Source: Escherichia virus TH13. From it: a stretch of DNA of 45,377 nucleotides. Of the stretch, positions 2,067 to 45,377 are shown one piece after another. Location: sequence record MT446391.1. One strand, 5' to 3'. The position numbers and the translations under genes are program-made. The notes under the pieces were generated by a model, which saw nothing but the letters and a program-made list of their open reading frames with translations, was not told the origin of the DNA and did not search any database. The first letter of the stretch is position 1. Each line of letters opens with the position of its first letter.

Positions 2067-3587
2067 ATGACCGTTAACGTTGACAACCAGCACCCCCTCT
2101 ATGCGCGCATCGCGCCAGAGTGGAAAATGATCCGGGATTGTGTAGCAGGGGAGCGCGCTGTGAAGGCGTGCGGCCCTTTGTACCTGCCACATCCTGCCAG
2201 CGGCGACAATACTGACCCGAAATCACGGGCGCGGTATAAGGCGTATAAGCAACGCGCTGTATTCCTGAACGCCACCGCCCGCACACTTAACGCGCTGTTA
2301 GGCGTTGCCTTTGCTAAACCGGTAAGTCTCGACCTTTCCGGGGCGATGGCGGACCTTATTGACGACGTAGACGGCAGTGGTATGCCGCTGCCGCAACTCC
2401 TGCGCGGTGCTATGTCTGAAGTTCTGCAATCAGGTCGTGCGGGCTTTATGGTGGACTACGATCGCCAGGCGCATTTTGATGAACTGGGTAACGTAGTACC
2501 GCAGACAGCCGCTGAGATGGCGTCACACCGCCCGCTTATCCGCCTGTACACGGCAGAACAGATCATCAACTGGCGGCAGACCCACGGAGCCGATACGCTG
2601 ATTGTGCTGAAGGAGACGGACGAAATCAGCACCGAAGACCCGGACGACTTCGCAAACCACGAAGTAACAATCTGGACTGAATTGCGCATGATTAACGGTG
2701 CAGCACACGCCCGCCGCTGGTACTACAACGCCGACACGTCCGAGGTGCAAATGGACTTGCCGCGCGGATTCACCCGCACCGACCTGGTGCCGCTGGTGGA
2801 TGCTACCGGTAAGGCACTGACACAACTTCCGTTTTGCTGGTGTGGCGCGGTGGACAACAACGCAACGCCAGACGCCGCTCCGCTGGCAGATATCGCGTCC
2901 ATCAACATTAAGCACTACAACGCCGAAGCGGACGTCGCCGAGATCGCGCACATCGTGGGCCAACCTACCCTGGTTGCGACGGGCTTGACTCAATCATGGG
3001 CGGACAAGAACCTGAAGGGAGGCATTGCCCTCGGTGCGACTAAGGGCGTTATCCTGGGCCAGAACATGGACGCTAAACTGATCCAGGCGGAGGAGCGCAA
3101 CTTGTCGGTTGCACTGTGTGAGCGTCGCGAGTTGCAAATGGCTAAACTTGGCGCAGCCCTGGTTGAGAAGGGGACCGCACCTAAGACGGCAACCGAGGCG
3201 GCCTACGATGCGCAGACTGATAACAGTATCCTGTCGCTTATTGCCGGTAACGTTGAGAAGGCTTTCAACCGTGCGCTGCAAATCGTGCAGCTATTCACGG
3301 GCGACACCGCCGACCAGCGCGTAACGCTGAACAAGTTCTACACTGAAATCACGGTTGATGCGCAGCTTATGACCGCGATGATGTCGGGTGTGCAGACTGG
3401 TACGGTCCGACTTGCTGACTTCATCAAGTGGATGATGGCCCAGGGCGTCATTGACGACTCGCAAACCGTCGAGCAGGTGGAAGACGAATTGCGAAATCAG
3501 AATCCATTGCCTCAAATGTCCCCTGATGCGGTAGAATCTACCGAAGAAGACCCGGACAAGGTAGCGGACAATGGCGAGAACGATTAA
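2067..3587 (+). CDS. portal protein
   Basis: 506 aa ORF with good RBS (aaggaaac) directly after the terminase; canonical position and size. Confidence 0.75.
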   Translation: MTVNVDNQHPLYARIAPEWKMIRDCVAGERAVKACGPLYLPHPASGDNTDPKSRARYKAYKQRAVFLNATARTLNALLGVAFAKPVSLDLSGAMADLIDDVDGSGMPLPQLLRGAMSEVLQSGRAGFMVDYDRQAHFDELGNVVPQTAAEMASHRPLIRLYTAEQIINWRQTHGADTLIVLKETDEISTEDPDDFANHEVTIWTELRMINGAAHARRWYYNADTSEVQMDLPRGFTRTDLVPLVDATGKALTQLPFCWCGAVDNNATPDAAPLADIASINIKHYNAEADVAEIAHIVGQPTLVATGLTQSWADKNLKGGIALGATKGVILGQNMDAKLIQAEERNLSVALCERRELQMAKLGAALVEKGTAPKTATEAAYDAQTDNSILSLIAGNVEKAFNRALQIVQLFTGDTADQRVTLNKFYTEITVDAQLMTAMMSGVQTGTVRLADFIKWMMAQGVIDDSQTVEQVEDELRNQNPLPQMSPDAVESTEEDPDKVADNGEND

Positions 3588-4674
3588 TCAACATATGGCG
3601 GATCGCATGATCCGTCGTCACATCTTCACCCAGCGCCTGAGCAATGACCAGGCGCGGCGGGTGCTGGCTATGTGGGAGAAGTTCCGGCCCACGTTACTGG
3701 GTAAGCTGACCGAGTTACTTGATGGCAAAAAGTCCATGAGCAACAAGGCACTTACCACACTATTAACGCAACTCGACAAGACCGTCAAAACGGAACTGCG
3801 CGCCGAGTTTAAAGTGCTGGCGGAGAGCCTTCGGGAGTTCGCCGACACCGAGGCTGATTATCTCGCTGACACACTAACGGCAGCGATCCAGCCCGCGGTC
3901 GCCGTGCCAGCGGTCGAAGTAGTGGGCGTTGTTACCGGCGCGCAGATTGCAGCGACGGCAATGAAAAACCAGTTCCAGGGTAACACCATGATGCAATGGC
4001 CTGACTCACTTTCCGAGTGGACCAGGACGCAGATCGGCAATCAGGTGCGCGCTGGATTCATCCAGGGCAAGCCGACTATGGAAATTATTGCGGACGTGAG
4101 GCGCGCGCTCGGCGGTCGAAGTGCGCAAGCTATCTCAAGCGTTGTTAAGTCCGCGGTCAACCACTATGCGGCGACCGCCCGCGAACTAATGGTAAAAGCA
4201 AATGACGATATTCTCGAAGGTCGCCAATGGTTGGCTACATTGGACACGCATACTTCTCCCATGTGCCAGCTACGCGATCGCCTGTTTTATCCGGTTGATG
4301 TTACTCCCGACACCAAAGGAAAGCGCGGCGGGAAAGTGGTGGCGGGGTCACAATATGGCGCTGGTCCGGGCAAGCTGCATTATTGCTGCCGTTCGACGGA
4401 GACGTGGAAAGTCAAAGGTATGGAAGATTGGCCCAGTGGTAAGCGTCCGGCACTGAAGGCTGACGCGGGCAGATTGCTGAGCGAGCAGGTCGACGCGCAG
4501 ACTGATTTCTTCTCATGGGTGCAGCGCCAGCCGCGCCATATTCTGGAAGAATTATACGGAGTGCAACGCGCCGACCAGATTATGCGCGGAGTGAAAGTGC
4601 CGAAGATGTTCACCGATTCCGGCGAACTAATGACTATCGCACAGCTTAAAAACCGGGGGTTATGGCGTGATTAA
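3571..4674 (+). CDS. head morphogenesis / minor capsid protein
   Basis: 367 aa ORF overlapping portal stop; canonical position after portal. Confidence 0.6.
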   Translation: MARTINQHMADRMIRRHIFTQRLSNDQARRVLAMWEKFRPTLLGKLTELLDGKKSMSNKALTTLLTQLDKTVKTELRAEFKVLAESLREFADTEADYLADTLTAAIQPAVAVPAVEVVGVVTGAQIAATAMKNQFQGNTMMQWPDSLSEWTRTQIGNQVRAGFIQGKPTMEIIADVRRALGGRSAQAISSVVKSAVNHYAATARELMVKANDDILEGRQWLATLDTHTSPMCQLRDRLFYPVDVTPDTKGKRGGKVVAGSQYGAGPGKLHYCCRSTETWKVKGMEDWPSGKRPALKADAGRLLSEQVDAQTDFFSWVQRQPRHILEELYGVQRADQIMRGVKVPKMFTDSGELMTIAQLKNRGLWRD

Positions 4675-4996
4675 ATATGCAGCGATTGGACTGGTTATCG
4701 GTCTGGCGGTAGGATTCTGGCTAGGCGACTCCTATCGTACTGGCGTAGTGGCGGAGGCGGCGCAAGAAGCGCAAGCCCAAGCCCAACGGCAGCAAACTAA
4801 AGTTGTTGAGCGCTCCGTGCAGGCCGAACAGGCCCGCGACGTAGAATACCGGACTATAACGAAAGAGGTTGTTAAATATGTTACGCGCCCTAACCGCCCT
4901 GATTGTAGTTTTGATGCTGAGCGCGTGCGGATCAAGCAACGTGCCGTTGATGCCGCTAACGGAGTCGGCACTGCGACCGCCGTGCAAGTTCGATAG
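4667..4996 (+). CDS. i-spanin (Rz-like inner membrane spanin)
   Basis: GTG start with GGGGG RBS; N-terminal TM helix (AAIGLVIGLAVGFWL) then Q/A/E/R-rich coiled-coil periplasmic region; contains the o-spanin gene in the +1 frame. Confidence 0.75.
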   Translation: MIKYAAIGLVIGLAVGFWLGDSYRTGVVAEAAQEAQAQAQRQQTKVVERSVQAEQARDVEYRTITKEVVKYVTRPNRPDCSFDAERVRIKQRAVDAANGVGTATAVQVR

Positions 4997-5108
4997 CCCG
5001 TCCGCAGACCCCGACGAAGACTTGCTGGTCGATGTTAAGAATATGGAATGTGGTGCGAAGCTGAGGGCGCAAGTGCTGGAGTTGCAGAAAATAATTCGGG
5101 GGCCGTGA
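4878..5108 (+). CDS. o-spanin (Rz1-like outer membrane lipoprotein)
   Basis: signal peptide with lipobox LSAC (LIVVLMLSAC GSS), short proline-rich mature region; starts inside the i-spanin gene and extends past it; ORF track start at TTG 4869, ATG with RBS at 4878. Confidence 0.75.
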   Translation: MLRALTALIVVLMLSACGSSNVPLMPLTESALRPPCKFDSPSADPDEDLLVDVKNMECGAKLRAQVLELQKIIRGP

Positions 5109-5121
5109 TGGCCCCCTTTTT
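5098..5121. terminator. bidirectional terminator between spanin genes and reverse-strand moron
   Basis: gggggcc-gtgat-ggccccc hairpin followed by T5; sits between convergent genes. Confidence 0.6.
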
Positions 5122-5122
5122 G

Positions 5123-5887
5123 TTAGCGCGGAATACCGCAAATCTCGTTTAGCGTCTTCACGTCCAGCGCCACCGCCGTGGACTTCGGCTTATCCGGGTA
5201 TGGAATAAACTGTTCAACTTCAGGCCACGCCTTGATCAGTTTCTTATCGGTATTGTGCATATCCAGTACGCCGGTAACTGTTAGTTTGAACGCGTCATAC
5301 TTCGCACGCAATTCGCGGCGGGCCTTGTCGTTGCGATCTAGGCGCTTGCAGAAGTCGTGGTCTGCCGGGTAGTCTACGCGACCGCGCGGAAGATATATCG
5401 GCAGCGATTTTCCGTCCTCGTCCACTTCGCACACTGAAGCCAGCATAACTTCCTCGTACCCCGGTACGATATCACCGAGATCGGGAGATAGCTTGTTCAA
5501 ATATTTCTCTTCCCAGTATCCGCGGTGCAGGCGGTATCGGTATCCATCGCCGCTCAATGATACGGTGCGAACATTACCGCCTGCGTTGATATCGAATCCG
5601 GCGCTATAAACGCTGCCGATGCCTTTTGGCCGGTCGGAGTTATAGCTATACGTCGCCTTGTCGGTGTAAACGCTAACGCCATACATCTGCGACTGGTTAT
5701 CGCGGATTTCTGCGATATATGCGCGTAACTCGGCGAACGTGCGAATGCCTTCCGGCATACAGTCCAGCGTAATGGCGTACGCCAAGTCGCGAGAGTCCAT
5801 CATGATGGATTTTGCTTCGGTCGCGATTTCATGGTCGCGCAGGATGTTAGCCAGAATCTTGTTTTTAACGTCTTTTGTCAGTCTCAT
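5123..5887 (-). CDS. hypothetical protein (reverse-oriented moron in head module)
   Basis: 254 aa from internal ATG (MRLTKDVKNK...) of the 403-aa track ORF; upstream extension would overlap the scaffold gene; no recognisable motifs. Confidence 0.6.
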   Translation of the reverse strand: MRLTKDVKNKILANILRDHEIATEAKSIMMDSRDLAYAITLDCMPEGIRTFAELRAYIAEIRDNQSQMYGVSVYTDKATYSYNSDRPKGIGSVYSAGFDINAGGNVRTVSLSGDGYRYRLHRGYWEEKYLNKLSPDLGDIVPGYEEVMLASVCEVDEDGKSLPIYLPRGRVDYPADHDFCKRLDRNDKARRELRAKYDAFKLTVTGVLDMHNTDKKLIKAWPEVEQFIPYPDKPKSTAVALDVKTLNEICGIPR

Positions 5888-5908
5888 TTTTGCGTCCTCG
5901 TTGTTGGT

Positions 5909-5931
5909 GTGCAACCAATATATGCAACCAA
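5909..5931. promoter_or_regulatory. paired TGCAACCAAT motifs in divergent control region
   Basis: two direct copies of tgcaaccaat 13 bp apart between divergent genes 5123..5887 and the scaffold gene; same motif recurs about 20 times in the window. Confidence 0.45.
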
Positions 5932-6035
5932 TACGCGGATTGCAAGCGAATTTTGCGATTATTTTTATCACTGATAATATTAGAGGCGTGAAGTCGAGCG
6001 GGTGGCCCGCTCTGCCACAATCCCAGGGGGATAGC

Positions 6036-6737
6036 ATGAAACTTACTAAAGCAGAATATGACGCGTTGCCGGAAGGTATGAAGGCGCTTTTTGTTGCCGA
6101 TGGTGACGGGTATAAATCAACGTTCATGACCGCAGAAGAAGTACAGGCGGAGATCAAGGGTCTGAAAGACAACAACGCGAAGCTGGTGAGCGAGAAGAAA
6201 GCAGAAGCTGAACGTCGCGCCGAAGCCGAGCGCCTTGCGAAAGAGAAAGAGGAAGCCGCCGCGCGCAAAAATGGCGACCTCGAAGCGATCGACAAGTCTT
6301 GGAAAGATAAGTTTGCGAAACACGAAGCAGACACATCGGGAAAAATCGAAGCCTATCGCAAGCAGATCCACGATCTAACCATCGGCAGCGCTGCCAAAGA
6401 CCTGGCGTCGAAGCTGTTCGGTAAGAATGCGGGCATCATGCAACGCCACGTAATGGACCGCCTGACGCTGGAAGACGGCGAAGACGGCAGCTTGAAAGTG
6501 CGTGTCTTGCAGGATGGCAAACCGTCCGCGCTGACTATGGAAGAGCTTGAAAAAGAGTTCCGTAATAACGCCGATTTCGCATCCGTCCTGGCCGGCACGC
6601 CAGCAGGAGGCGCTCCTAGCAAACCGACGCAGGTTGTCGAAGATGTGAAGTCTAAAATTACGATGGGCCATAGCTTCGGTATCACCGATCTCACCAAACA
6701 GGCCGGGGATATCATCGCTAAAATGGGCGACGAGTAA
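6036..6737 (+). CDS. scaffolding protein (putative)
   Basis: 233 aa from ATG with RBS caggggga; charged, coiled-coil-like (EAERRAEAERLAKEKEEAAARK); directly upstream of major capsid gene. Confidence 0.6.
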   Translation: MKLTKAEYDALPEGMKALFVADGDGYKSTFMTAEEVQAEIKGLKDNNAKLVSEKKAEAERRAEAERLAKEKEEAAARKNGDLEAIDKSWKDKFAKHEADTSGKIEAYRKQIHDLTIGSAAKDLASKLFGKNAGIMQRHVMDRLTLEDGEDGSLKVRVLQDGKPSALTMEELEKEFRNNADFASVLAGTPAGGAPSKPTQVVEDVKSKITMGHSFGITDLTKQAGDIIAKMGDE

Positions 6738-6834
6738 GCGGATTGCCCGCGAAAGCGGGCAATTTTGCGAGCGCGTAAAACTAAGGTAACATTAATGCCA
6801 CTGGGCGAATGCTCACAACTCAAAGGATTTCGAT

Positions 6835-37231: not shown

Positions 37232-37468
37232 GGTATATCTCCGATTGGTTAAGTTTAGGTGTCGGCAGTTAACTTCGTCGCTGGCCTTAACATATTGCCA
37301 GGTTACGCGTTCTCCCGTTCGGGTAGTGGACCTGGTTATATAATCACGGTTGGGAATCCTGACACTTCGATCCGGCCCCTGCGTTGCCCCTCTCCAGTTT
37401 GCGTCCTGCATCCTGTCGACGGAGTGAATGATAGATTGGTTGCAGGATAGGTGTCAACAACTAATTTC

Positions 37469-42596: not shown

Positions 42597-42887
42597 ATGG
42601 ATAAGCTAAACGAGTGGTTATTTGCCCTCGCATGTCTGGCGGGTGGCTTCGTAGGCGCACGCATTCATGGTGAGGCTACGAAGGGGCCGCTAAACTTCGT
42701 TTTGTATGTTGTAGTTGGCTTCCTGTGTGCCATATTTGGCGCACCGGCTATTGCCGAGTGGGCTGGTTTGTCGGGGGAGCGCACTGTCGCCGGTTTGGGC
42801 TTCGTAACCGCAATCTTCTGGATGCCAATCGCCGACCGGATCAGGGAGACTATTGCGTCGTTCCGACTTCCGGGGGGTGCAAAATGA
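42597..42887 (+). CDS. holin-like membrane protein
   Basis: 96 aa, three predicted hydrophobic helices, immediately upstream of second small membrane protein and endolysin. Confidence 0.55.
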   Translation: MDKLNEWLFALACLAGGFVGARIHGEATKGPLNFVLYVVVGFLCAIFGAPAIAEWAGLSGERTVAGLGFVTAIFWMPIADRIRETIASFRLPGGAK

Positions 42888-43129
42888 TTATCTCCGTCCT
42901 GTTGTTTGTTATCATCGGGGCTTCGTCCCTGTTTAACGTGTATGCGCCGTCCGTCCGGGATGGCATTTTCGGTCGGGTGCTGTATCTGTTAACGGCAATG
43001 GTCTGTATTATCGGATTGTTGCAAACAGGAGACGTATCAGATGCCACCTGGACCGCGTTAATCTGGCTGTTTGCATTGCGCACACTGCGTAATGCTGTTT
43101 TGAATGGGGTAAAACATGCGATTCAGTGA
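42884..43129 (+). CDS. holin/antiholin-like small membrane protein
   Basis: 81 aa from ATG with RBS gggggg; two to three hydrophobic helices; overlaps endolysin start. Confidence 0.5.
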   Translation: MIISVLLFVIIGASSLFNVYAPSVRDGIFGRVLYLLTAMVCIIGLLQTGDVSDATWTALIWLFALRTLRNAVLNGVKHAIQ

Positions 43130-43607
43130 CAACGGTCTAAGATTTACGGCAGCATGGGAGGCTTTCAGCCCGGTGCCGTATTTCGCGACCAAGAAAGAGC
43201 AGGCCCGCGGCCTGTACACTTGGGGTTATGGTCATACCGGCACTAATCCGCCTCGAAGCATTACCCGAGCGGAAGCGCTGGATCTGCTTAAGCGCGATGT
43301 GGCGTATGCTGAGGACTGGGTGAACAAATACGCGCATAAGAGTATTAACCAGGCGCAATTTGACGCGCTGGTGGACCTGGTAATCAACGCCGGTCCTGGT
43401 CCGATCGTACCGGATGACGTCGCGAATGATTTCGATGATGCGGTACGGTTGGGCGACTGGGCGAAGGTCCGTGCTACGCTGCCGCTGTTCCGCAAGCAAG
43501 GCGGGGAAGTGCTTAAGGGTCTGGTGCGCCGTGCAATCGGCAGACAGGCGTTGTTTGATGGTAAGCAGTGGGACGTTGCCGAGCGAATCGGTCGTAACGC
43601 AGCATAA
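43116..43607 (+). CDS. endolysin (lysozyme-like muramidase)
   Basis: 163 aa; N-terminal ...FTAAWEAF...YTWGYGHTG... resembles the catalytic Glu and GYGHT region of phage lysozyme-type endolysins; follows holin-like genes. Confidence 0.65.
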   Translation: MRFSDNGLRFTAAWEAFSPVPYFATKKEQARGLYTWGYGHTGTNPPRSITRAEALDLLKRDVAYAEDWVNKYAHKSINQAQFDALVDLVINAGPGPIVPDDVANDFDDAVRLGDWAKVRATLPLFRKQGGEVLKGLVRRAIGRQALFDGKQWDVAERIGRNAA

Positions 43608-43791: not shown

Positions 43792-43798
43792 ACAATCA

Positions 43799-43823
43799 AG
43801 CCCGGAATTAACCGGGCTTTTTA
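43799..43823 (+). terminator. rho-independent terminator after lysis cassette
   Basis: agcccgg-aattaa-ccgggct followed by T5. Confidence 0.6.
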
Positions 43824-43886
43824 TTGCTTGACTTGCAACCAACATAGACTCCATACTGCGACCAATCAACGAGAGGAGTAATCAAG

Positions 43887-43967
43887 ATGGCACGTAAAGA
43901 TATTTGGGTATTAGCGATCTGGACCACCGCGGCTTTTATCGGCATGGTTATTTGCGAATTGATATAG
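43887..43967 (+). CDS. tiny hydrophobic peptide (26 aa)
   Basis: strong RBS gagaggag; MARKDIWVLAIWTTAAFIGMVICELI. Confidence 0.3.
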   Translation: MARKDIWVLAIWTTAAFIGMVICELI

Positions 43968-44028: not shown

Positions 44029-45171
44029 ATGCACCCGCAAACTAAAATTACCGATGAGCAATTGATCGCAGAAATTCAGGCAGGGACTACGGTTAAAGAT
44101 ATTGCGAAGAAATACGGGATTGCCCTACGCAATGTTTATATGCGGAAAGCCCGCCTATCGAAAAAAGGCATTGGACACGGCAACGATGCCGTAATCCGCA
44201 AGCGCGTTGCCGATGGCTTTGGGGTTAAGCGCGTATCGGCCCTGGTGCGCGGTAATGGCGAAGAGGTCATGTCGTGGATCATCACTGAGCAGGACAAGGA
44301 GCGCCAACTCGAAGCTATGCGCGCTGTTGTCGATGGTATGAACAGCGAAATCACACCGGCAGCGCCCGTAAACGCCCCGCCAGTACCGGTCCATGCACTG
44401 GACCTACTCAACCTGTACACCGTGTCCGACTTCCACCTGGGCATGTTGGCCTGGGGCGAGGAGACTGGCGAAGACTGGGATATGGCGATTGCAGAAGACC
44501 TGTTTTACCGCTGGTTTGTCGAAGCCTTCGCACGCGCACCGGACGCAGGCACTGCCGTAATTAATATCCTCGGTGATATGGCGCATTTTGATAGCCTTGA
44601 TGCGGTCACCCCAGCCAGCGGGCACGTACTGGACGCGGATACCCGCTACCAGAAACTGGTCCGCTACATGATTCGCATGGTGCGCAACGTGGTAGACTTG
44701 GCACTGCAAAAACACCACAAAGTCAAACTTCTAATCGTCCAGGGGAATCATGACGAATCGGGCATGATTTGGCTGGCTGAAATGTTCAACACCCTGTACG
44801 AGAACGAGCCGCGCGTCGATGTGGATACGTCCCCGGACGTATACAAAATGGTGCAACACGGCAAGACCACGCTGTTCTTCCACCACGGGCACAAAGCGCG
44901 CTTCGATGCTATTGAAACCGTCATGATTTCCAAATTCAGACAGGCGTTCGGGTCCAGCGAGTACAGCTACGCGCATGTAGGCCACTTGCACCACCAGAAG
45001 ATTGTAGAATCCCGCAACATGATTGTTGAACAACACCGGACCCTCGCCGCGAAAGACGCATATGCCAGCCGCGGCGGTTGGATGTCCGGTCGTAGCGCCA
45101 ACGTAATAACCTACAGCGCCAACTACGGCGAAGTAGCGCGCTTAACCATTAGCCCGGAAATGTTGAAATGA
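44029..45171 (+). CDS. HTH-domain / calcineurin-like metallophosphoesterase fusion protein
   Basis: 380 aa; N-terminal HTH-like TVKDIAKKYGIALRNVYMRKARL; phosphoesterase motifs DFHLG, GDMAHFD, GNHDE, HHGH, GHLHH. Confidence 0.65.
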   Translation: MHPQTKITDEQLIAEIQAGTTVKDIAKKYGIALRNVYMRKARLSKKGIGHGNDAVIRKRVADGFGVKRVSALVRGNGEEVMSWIITEQDKERQLEAMRAVVDGMNSEITPAAPVNAPPVPVHALDLLNLYTVSDFHLGMLAWGEETGEDWDMAIAEDLFYRWFVEAFARAPDAGTAVINILGDMAHFDSLDAVTPASGHVLDADTRYQKLVRYMIRMVRNVVDLALQKHHKVKLLIVQGNHDESGMIWLAEMFNTLYENEPRVDVDTSPDVYKMVQHGKTTLFFHHGHKARFDAIETVMISKFRQAFGSSEYSYAHVGHLHHQKIVESRNMIVEQHRTLAAKDAYASRGGWMSGRSANVITYSANYGEVARLTISPEMLK

Positions 45172-45185
45172 TTAGACAAGTATTC

Positions 45186-45377
45186 ATGAGCACGCAGGCT
45201 GACCGCCTGAAGGAATTACGCAAACAACTCGAAGGCTTGCGCCGATTCGAACGAACGGCAGCGGCTATAGGCATGTCTATCAGCGAGCGGATCGAGATAC
45301 TATCGCAAATACGCTACACAGAAGGCGCTATAAGCGAAGTAGAAAGCATGTTAACCCGATACTACGGTCGCCCCGTT
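45186..45377 (+). CDS. hypothetical protein, 3-prime truncated by window edge
   Basis: open frame from ATG to end of window (64 codons, MSTQADRLKELRKQ...). Confidence 0.4.
   Translation, partial: MSTQADRLKELRKQLEGLRRFERTAAAIGMSISERIEILSQIRYTEGAISEVESMLTRYYGRPV

Follow-up and report, generated by a model that had tools for sequence, protein, structure and literature searches.

An HTH-metallophosphoesterase gene between the lysis and packaging genes of a Dhillonvirus coliphage belongs to the T1 gp16 family and probably encodes a DNA-directed nuclease

The window, i.e., the whole stretch of DNA analysed, is 45,377 nt of Escherichia virus TH13 (MT446391.1), a Dhillonvirus coliphage. The region described here is 100% identical to that of Escherichia virus TH11 and 92-96% identical to that of many Dhillonvirus coliphages; the closest annotated relative is phage McMelon, with a 96%-identical genome and 68 annotated genes. 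An ORF at positions 44029-45171 of the plus strand starts with ATG and encodes a 380-aa protein with an HTH module and a metallophosphoesterase domain. Upstream of it PHROG profiles identify two holin genes (phrog_2359, 42597-42887, and phrog_2508, 42878-43129) and an endolysin gene (phrog_7, 43116-43607), and the position after the lysis cassette that an earlier note had given for the gene is thus correct. A terminator-like GC hairpin followed by a T-run is found at 43798-43819 (plus strand; 8-bp stem with 6 GC pairs, TTTATT tail), and would close the transcription unit of the lysis cassette.

The same note had placed the gene behind a promoter-like region containing a motif. Such a region is present as a candidate, a sigma-70-like promoter that matches the consensus, TTGACT-18 nt-CATACT (43828-43857, plus strand), with a single copy of TGCAACCAA at 43834-43842 within its spacer. 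This 9-mer is over-represented genome-wide, with 11 copies vs 0.44 expected. Recognition of TGCAACCAA by the HTH was considered as a general explanation and rejected, the motif being confined to Dhillonvirus relatives: the Kagunavirus and Bas01 loci, whose protein copies are 43-76% identical, do not have it, and T1 has only 2 copies. Downstream of the promoter candidate a plus-strand mini-ORF (43887-43967), with a GAGGAG ribosome-binding site on its 5′ side, encodes the 26-aa hydrophobic sequence MARKDIWVLAIWTTAAFIGMVICELI. It has no PHROG match, and the McMelon annotation has a small ORF, labelled 'hypothetical protein', in this position.

On the 3′ side is a 70-aa ORF (phrog_20931, no function assigned; 45168-45377, plus strand) that runs to the end of the window. 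Because its start ATG overlaps the stop codon of the main gene (ATGA), translational coupling of the two is suggested. The 70-aa ORF is not a conserved partner among the loci examined, since phrog_20931 is found beside Dhillonvirus copies only, and lineages outside Dhillonvirus have different genes in its place. The genes for the small and large subunits of terminase are at 99-671 and 671-2056, and therefore on the circular map the gene lies between lysis and packaging genes, a placement that in Dhillonvirus may entail late expression.

The HTH-metallophosphoesterase ORF is a genuine gene and is subject to strong purifying selection. Compared with McMelon it has a pN/pS of 0.07, and the two proteins differ by 7 amino-acid changes, each of which is within residues 16-102, with none in the catalytic domain. 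Three parts, all encoded on the plus strand, make up the protein. Residues 1-58 (44029-44202) are the HTH DNA-binding module, of the resolvase / LuxR / sigma-region-4 type. They are followed at residues 60-107 (44206-44349) by a family-specific connector that consists of a beta-hairpin (64-73 and 79-88) and a long helix (90-105). Residues 121-380 (44389-45168) are the binuclear metallophosphoesterase catalytic domain, whose nearest folds are those of nucleases.

The complete set of five phosphoesterase motifs reported earlier for the 380-aa protein is found in its translation. Motif I is D134-F-H136-L-G138 (DFHLG, residues 134-138, 44428-44442), in which the D and H are metal ligands. Motif II is G182-D183-M-A-H186-F-D188 (GDMAHFD, 182-188, 44572-44592), with a GDxxH pattern as in the GDLLH of Mre11, and motif III is G239-N240-H241-D242 (44743-44754), part of GNHDE at residues 239-243. 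Motif IV is H285-H286-G287-H288 (HHGH, 285-288, 44881-44892) and motif V is G318-H319-L-H321-H322 (GHLHH, 318-322, 44980-44994). All the metal-ligand motifs of the calcineurin-like superfamily, DxH, GD, GNH[DE], H and GHxH, are therewith represented. In an alignment of 80 diverse homologues, D134, H136, G182, D183, N240, H241, H286, G318 and H321 are invariant, and conservation is 90% or more at H186, D242, H285, H288 and H319; the same homologues display a conserved stretch specific to the family, T194...L201-D202...R206.

An AlphaFold2 model, with the homologue alignment as input, is of high confidence, with a pLDDT of 94.3 and a pTM of 0.86. The HTH is tri-helical in the model (helices 9-17, 22-29 and 33-45), and the metallophosphoesterase domain (about 121-380), with its beta-sandwich fold, forms the end of the chain. 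With the single window sequence HTH models of Pfam match weakly; the tri-helical HTH of the resolvase / LuxR / sigma-region-4 type is recognisable both by profile and by structure. The N-terminal HTH is therefore real, and its fusion to a calcineurin-like metallophosphoesterase, as first read from the letters, holds. The HTH is conserved across the family, yet it varies more than any other part of the protein, whose conserved core consists of the connector and the catalytic domain. The connector residues G77 and W83 are invariant or nearly so, and the beta-hairpin/helix connector is kept even in homologues in which the HTH has been replaced or has diverged.

The match of the protein to phrog_704 is full-length, with residues 5-380 aligned to positions 2-390 of the 390-position profile (E 1.8e-160). 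It should be noted that 'DNA repair exonuclease' is the annotation name of phrog_704 and not a demonstrated function. Homologues are found by tblastn in 2059 of 50,697 phage records. The family comprises 3728 clusters at 90% identity and 4660 representatives at 50% identity, of which 1127 are below 1e-30, mostly 370-420 aa long. Its carriers include T1-like phages, Dhillonvirus, Kagunavirus, Jerseyvirus, Webervirus and many prophages, and a pangenome study found the gene in 508 of 522 Drexlerviridae (PMC13164509). A scan of species-representative bacterial genomes gave 49 family loci; many of them are embedded in chromosomes of megabase size and have integrases, endolysins and NinG/Rap close by, and these loci are therefore prophages. 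The temperate phage 16-3 also has a member, p044. The window gene is thus one more member of a common and already catalogued phage family.

Two members of phrog_704 are of special interest, gp16 of T1 (ST16; 44% identity, E 2e-108) and Bas01_0050 of the BASEL phage Bas01, a full-length orthologue encoded upstream of the lysis genes (43% identity, E 5e-104). Both have the HTH / beta-hairpin / metallophosphoesterase architecture and the catalytic residues of the window protein. The gene position differs: in Dhillonvirus it follows the lysis cassette and precedes terminase, whereas in Drexlerviridae it precedes the lysis cassette. The TLS genome (49,902 bp) has the orthologue L084. In a re-annotation of TLS, gp66 is given as a 'proof-reading exonuclease' (PMC11447400); given the match to the proofreading exonuclease DP1 described below, gp66 is probably this same gene.

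A homology and structure search had been proposed as the means of assigning the protein to a clade. In the fold comparison the small subunit DP1 of PolD, an archaeal 3′-5′ proofreading exonuclease, is at the top of the list with a score of 15.7, followed by Mre11 (3qg5, 14.9) and SbcD (7dog, 14.8). LpxH (13.9), MJ0936 (13.4), further Mre11/SbcD structures (13.0-13.4), GpdQ (12.5) and Rv0805, a class III cyclic-nucleotide phosphodiesterase (12.1), come next, and the PPP protein phosphatases PP5 and PP1 score lower (8.5-9). With the profile of the catalytic domain the only PDB metallophosphoesterases matched are the Mre11/SbcD proteins of T. maritima and P. furiosus and a P. putida 'Nuclease MPE', at E values that are not significant (0.3-4). 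In these alignments SDxHLG (motif I), GDLLH (motif II) and GNHD are in register, and the window protein shares with Mre11/SbcD a catalytic domain of the nuclease type that contains GDxxH and GNHD. A PDB search with the single protein sequence was discarded, as it gave only spurious repeat-protein matches. The Pfam models Metallophos and Metallophos_2 remain below their gathering thresholds (22.8 bits vs 27, and 20.2 vs 21.5) and Metallophos models match only 17 of 80 relatives at E < 0.01; two noise-level matches, neither to SbcD nor to Mre11, are all that NCBIfam yields. By its motifs the window protein is a divergent member of the calcineurin-like metallophosphoesterase superfamily. It has in common with the lambda Ser/Thr phosphatase (NinI) and with CpdA / Rv0805 the superfamily fold and the scheme of metal ligands.

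The resemblance to Mre11/SbcD has limits. Those proteins have a C-terminal capping domain, whereas in the window protein nothing follows the last strands of the catalytic domain, which reach the C-terminus at residue 380, and of the Mre11/SbcD chains of 362-386 residues only 183-191 residues align with the window protein, with no significant sequence-profile match. They act with a Rad50/SbcC partner; none is found among the 68 annotated genes of McMelon, in 26 viral lineages or at 29 genomic loci, and the window protein has an N-terminal HTH instead. Membership in Mre11/SbcD in the family sense was rejected, as the capping domain, Rad50/SbcC and a match to a curated model are all missing. In comparison with PolD DP1, the window protein is without the OB-fold domain and without a DP2 partner, and the DNA polymerase of the phage is of family A.

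Experimental evidence comes from one orthologue, Bas01_0050, which is 43% identical to the window protein. In a study of the DRT7/UG10 reverse-transcriptase defence, all sequenced Bas1 escapers had missense or frameshift mutations in Bas01_0050, which the authors of the preprint term a putative nucleic-acid-targeting phosphoesterase (10.64898/2026.02.16.706125). Expressed from pBAD the gene is toxic in E. coli, and its co-expression with DRT7 was impossible; the positions of the escape mutations are absent from the text and supplement of the preprint (10.64898/2026.02.16.706125). Thus the phage can form plaques without this orthologue, which by itself harms the cell, and loss of the orthologue helps the phage under DRT7. 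Retron-Eco7 escapers of the Dhillonvirus phage98 are also on record, with the mutated gene given only as 'unknown function' (PMC12640716). The published work on OLD, Eco2, Zorya/Druantia, Metis and PUA-Cal-HAD does not implicate the window gene. PADLOC finds no match to a defence-system or anti-defence family, and a role as a defence-system component was rejected.

Roberts and Drexler reportedly described in 1981 T1 high-transduction mutants with a phenotype in host-chromosome degradation; a literature search for the mapping of a T1 'gene 2.5' was without result. Both T1 and TLS break down the genome of their host and recycle its nucleotides, and according to the TLS re-annotation the gene products responsible had not been identified (PMC11447400). 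In T5 the loss of host DNA requires A1, a predicted metallophosphatase, and A1 suffices to bring it about (10.64898/2026.04.02.716235). A1 is, in addition, a locus of escape from retron Eco2 and OLD. Like the window protein, T5 A1 (phrog_1745) has an N-terminal DNA-binding/HTH part followed by a predicted metallophosphatase akin to nucleases of double-strand-break repair and proofreading, and relatives of A1 have N-terminal HTHs as well. A1 and Bas01_0050 are further alike in being toxic or DNA-degrading when alone and in being the trigger or escape locus for defence systems. They differ in that A1 is a 556-aa, essential, pre-early protein, whereas Bas01_0050 is dispensable. Homology to A1 was rejected: BLASTP gives E values of at least 0.19, hhalign aligns the HTH only, with a probability of 27%, and A1 maps to a PHROG separate from phrog_704. 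The parallel would therefore be one of architecture and not of demonstrable homology.

Gene neighbourhoods were compared in 26 independent viral lineages (65% identity clusters) taken from 87 loci, among which no conserved protein partner is found. A dNMP kinase is the neighbour cluster found most often, in 7 of the 26 lineages, on the same strand and at a median of 506 nt downstream. When the two flanking ORFs on each side are assigned to PHROGs, PNK, nucleotide kinases, dATP/dGTP pyrophosphohydrolase and nucleoside 2-deoxyribosyltransferase recur, and HNH homing endonucleases and lysis genes are found as well. A trio of metallophosphoesterase, PNK and dNMP kinase genes is found both in Webervirus, a siphovirus, and in Jedunavirus, and in phage 16-3 a dNMP 5′-phosphatase gene is close to the family gene. 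In the Drexlerviridae pangenome PNK and dNMP kinase are the genes that most often follow, an association that its authors read as boosting the nucleotide supply (PMC13164509). The association does not hold in the genome of the window itself: in the close relative McMelon no dNMP kinase is annotated, and the PNK and ligase genes are on the strand opposite to the gene. These neighbours in nucleotide metabolism are circumstantial, and they fit a DNase that feeds salvage. A role as a packaging helper, considered from the adjacency to terS/terL, was rejected, because this adjacency is limited to Dhillonvirus and Jedunavirus, and the Drexlerviridae have the gene ahead of their lysis genes.

The earlier note had left three activities side by side, those of a nuclease, a signalling phosphatase and a cyclic-nucleotide phosphodiesterase. 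The folds, the profile, the HTH and the toxicity of Bas01_0050 favour the first over the other two, and the window protein is probably a DNA-directed nuclease (a probability of about 0.6). It would be a stand-alone two-metal phosphodiesterase that hydrolyses DNA phosphodiester bonds with a catalytic domain of the nuclease branch of the calcineurin-like superfamily, similar to PolD-DP1, Mre11 and SbcD. The HTH would tether or target the enzyme to duplex DNA by way of the family-specific beta-hairpin/helix connector, with no need of a Rad50/SbcC ATPase, and in the infected cell the enzyme would cut or degrade DNA.

On which DNA such an enzyme might act is a more tentative matter. In virulent lineages an attack on the host chromosome appears to be the most probable physiological role, and we infer it with considerable reserve; the breakdown of host DNA would feed nucleotide salvage and would leave damage or ends for some defence systems to sense. 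A more specific proposal, to be taken with somewhat greater reserve still, is that the family of T1 gp16, Bas01_0050 and the Dhillonvirus proteins is the nuclease behind the T1-type degradation of host DNA. It would then be HTH-guided and independent of Rad50, it would have arrived at the architecture of T5 A1 by independent evolution, and its damage or products would be detected by DRT7 and perhaps by other defences that sense DNA damage or nucleotides. Wholesale destruction of the host chromosome is unlikely to be the universal role of the family, because members are found in prophages with integrases and in the temperate phage 16-3.

The occurrence in temperate phages is also consistent with a different task for a nuclease. 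As a Rad50-independent analogue of Mre11/SbcD, the protein could trim ends, open hairpins or process intermediates of recombination-dependent replication or concatemer maturation, leaving host DNA alone. The nuclease-like fold of the Mre11/SbcD type and the database label 'DNA repair exonuclease' agree with such a task, as do prophage copies in nin-like regions beside the NinG/Rap junction endonucleases and, in T1-like phages, the location of the gene as the last in a helicase / VRR-NUC / Dam operon. However neither Rad50/SbcC nor SSB or a recombinase is a conserved neighbour in the 26 lineages and 29 loci, and on its other strand the phage genome already carries a distinct exonuclease together with a gp2.5-like annealing/SSB pair. 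Frameshift mutants of Bas01_0050 are viable, and its strong toxicity on its own fits an indiscriminate DNase better. A role confined to such intermediates is rather unlikely, all of this considered.

Readings in which DNA is not the substrate to be degraded are much less probable. End-healing is an activity of the metallophosphoesterase domain in Clostridium thermocellum Pnkp, and a PNK-type gene is directly downstream of the family gene in Webervirus, Jedunavirus and other lineages, so that a 2′,3′-cyclic phosphodiesterase or 3′-phosphatase that works with PNK to mend broken tRNA or DNA ends should be considered. Metallophosphoesterases are capable of end-healing (PMC2190708). Such a function is nevertheless very unlikely for the window protein. 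The possibility that had given the earlier note its interest, a phosphodiesterase that destroys the cyclic (oligo)nucleotide messengers of CBASS, Pycsar, Thoeris or type III CRISPR, found no positive support and is more improbable again. Nuclease structures score above Rv0805 in the fold comparison, a conserved DNA-binding HTH has no role in an enzyme acting on small molecules, and the PADLOC search described above returned no anti-defence family. Since losing Bas01_0050 helps the phage escape DRT7, counter-defence fits poorly; the protein is toxic to E. coli, and its loss does not sensitise the phage. Among the viral cGAMP phosphodiesterases of one preprint there is no metallophosphatase (10.64898/2026.07.21.739742). 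Least credible of all is a lambda-PP / NinI-like Ser/Thr/Tyr protein phosphatase by which host signalling would be reprogrammed, even though some database records label homologues 'putative serine/threonine protein phosphatase' and several phages have the gene ahead of the lysis genes in a nin-like position. The fold comparison largely refutes it, and neither a PPP-type fold neighbourhood nor the GDxVDRG motif is found for the window protein.

For the window itself the finding is an ordinary one, because the sequence is identical to that of a deposited genome and the family has been catalogued. The interest rests on the question of T1-type host-DNA degradation and on the emerging role of the family as a determinant of sensitivity to defence systems; the family is among the commonest accessory DNA-metabolism families of the siphoviruses used for phage therapy and in defence-system research. 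If its members are nucleases that degrade host DNA, a 45-year-old gap in the biology of T1 would be closed. This would explain why T1-type phages transduce poorly unless mutated, and why they are visible to DRT7-type systems and possibly to m6dAMP-sensing systems. The family would then be a second, independently evolved example of the solution found by T5 with A1.

The 9-mer TGCAACCAA was counted on both strands of the window and is present in 11 copies, as against 0.44 expected from shuffled sequences. Seven copies lie on the + strand (5910, 5923, 22010, 27018, 27035, 41261 and 43834) and four on the - strand (25355, 25367, 37436 and 40713). The base that follows the 9-mer on its 3′ side is usually a T, and tandem pairs with a spacing of 12-17 nt are frequent. 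Several copies are contained within, or adjoin, promoter-like -35/-10 elements; the copy at 37436, with TTGACA-spacer-TATCAT, and the copy found with TTGACT...CATACT at 43828 are examples. The positions of the 9-mer are maintained in the Dhillonvirus relatives McMelon (the closest annotated relative), L016 and L017. The motif was not found in Kagunavirus-type loci or in the locus of the BASEL phage Bas01, and just two copies are present in T1. The 9-mer probably serves a regulator as an operator or promoter element that is specific to the genus.

Upstream of the predicted nuclease gene, two adjacent and slightly overlapping holin-family genes, both on the + strand, are situated 5′ of the endolysin gene: 42597-42887 (phrog_2359) and 42878-43129 (phrog_2508). 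In the McMelon annotation one "holin" CDS spans this region, thus the gene models are not the same between the two records. The interval from the lysis cassette to the nuclease gene contains a + strand mini-ORF (43887-43967) with a strong GAGGAG ribosome-binding site. Its hydrophobic 26-aa product, MARKDIWVLAIWTTAAFIGMVICELI, may be a small peptide of the membrane and has no match in PHROG. In McMelon, the annotation has a small ORF at the equivalent position.

On the 3′ side, the start of a 70-aa ORF overlaps the stop codon of the nuclease gene in the sequence ATGA. This ORF (45168-45377, + strand) continues past the end of the window, which falls about 3 nt short of its stop codon, and is followed directly by terS. 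It belongs to phrog_20931, of unknown function, and its translated sequence looks helical. Among the loci examined, the 70-aa ORF adjoins only Dhillonvirus copies of the nuclease gene, and in the other lineages inspected different genes are found in its place. Genes for a "polynucleotide kinase" have a similar position in L025 (7122-7607), L015 (5168-5659) and L005 (1904-2470); in L025, for which the product was compared with profiles, the gene is directly downstream of the nuclease gene. The protein encoded in L025 is short (about 162 aa), and it matches both the C-terminal part of a second polynucleotide kinase profile (positions 162-292 of the 295 of phrog_505) and a HAD-type phosphatase family. 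Thus the L025 protein may be a 3′-phosphatase and not a kinase, with kinase activity possibly provided by the adjacent P-loop "dNMP kinase".

In the temperate Rhizobium phage 16-3, the region 3563-6818, within about 3 kb, contains p044, a nuclease-like protein of the same family, p047, a NinI-type Ser/Thr phosphatase, and p048, an HD-family dNMP 5′-phosphatase. Thus two different metallophosphoesterases, p044 and p047, are found side by side in one phage. The pairing of p044 with p048 resembles that of A1 and Dmp of T5.

Mutants of the Dhillonvirus "phage98" that escape Retron-Eco7 are reported to be altered in one gene, which is not named and is described as "of unknown function"; its wild-type form causes growth arrest of cells that carry the retron (PMC12640716). 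Escapers of HK578 from OLD involve replication and recombination genes. The phage98 gene might be the nuclease gene, or it might be among replication and recombination genes as in the HK578 escapers.

Alignment with the 96%-identical McMelon orthologue shows that all seven aa differences are in residues 16-102 (window 44074-44334), which lie in the HTH and hairpin region, whereas the catalytic domain (260 aa) is free of them. When members of the family are compared, replacement or extension likewise affects the N-terminal module. This suggests a fixed catalytic core with a diversifying specificity for DNA or for a partner.
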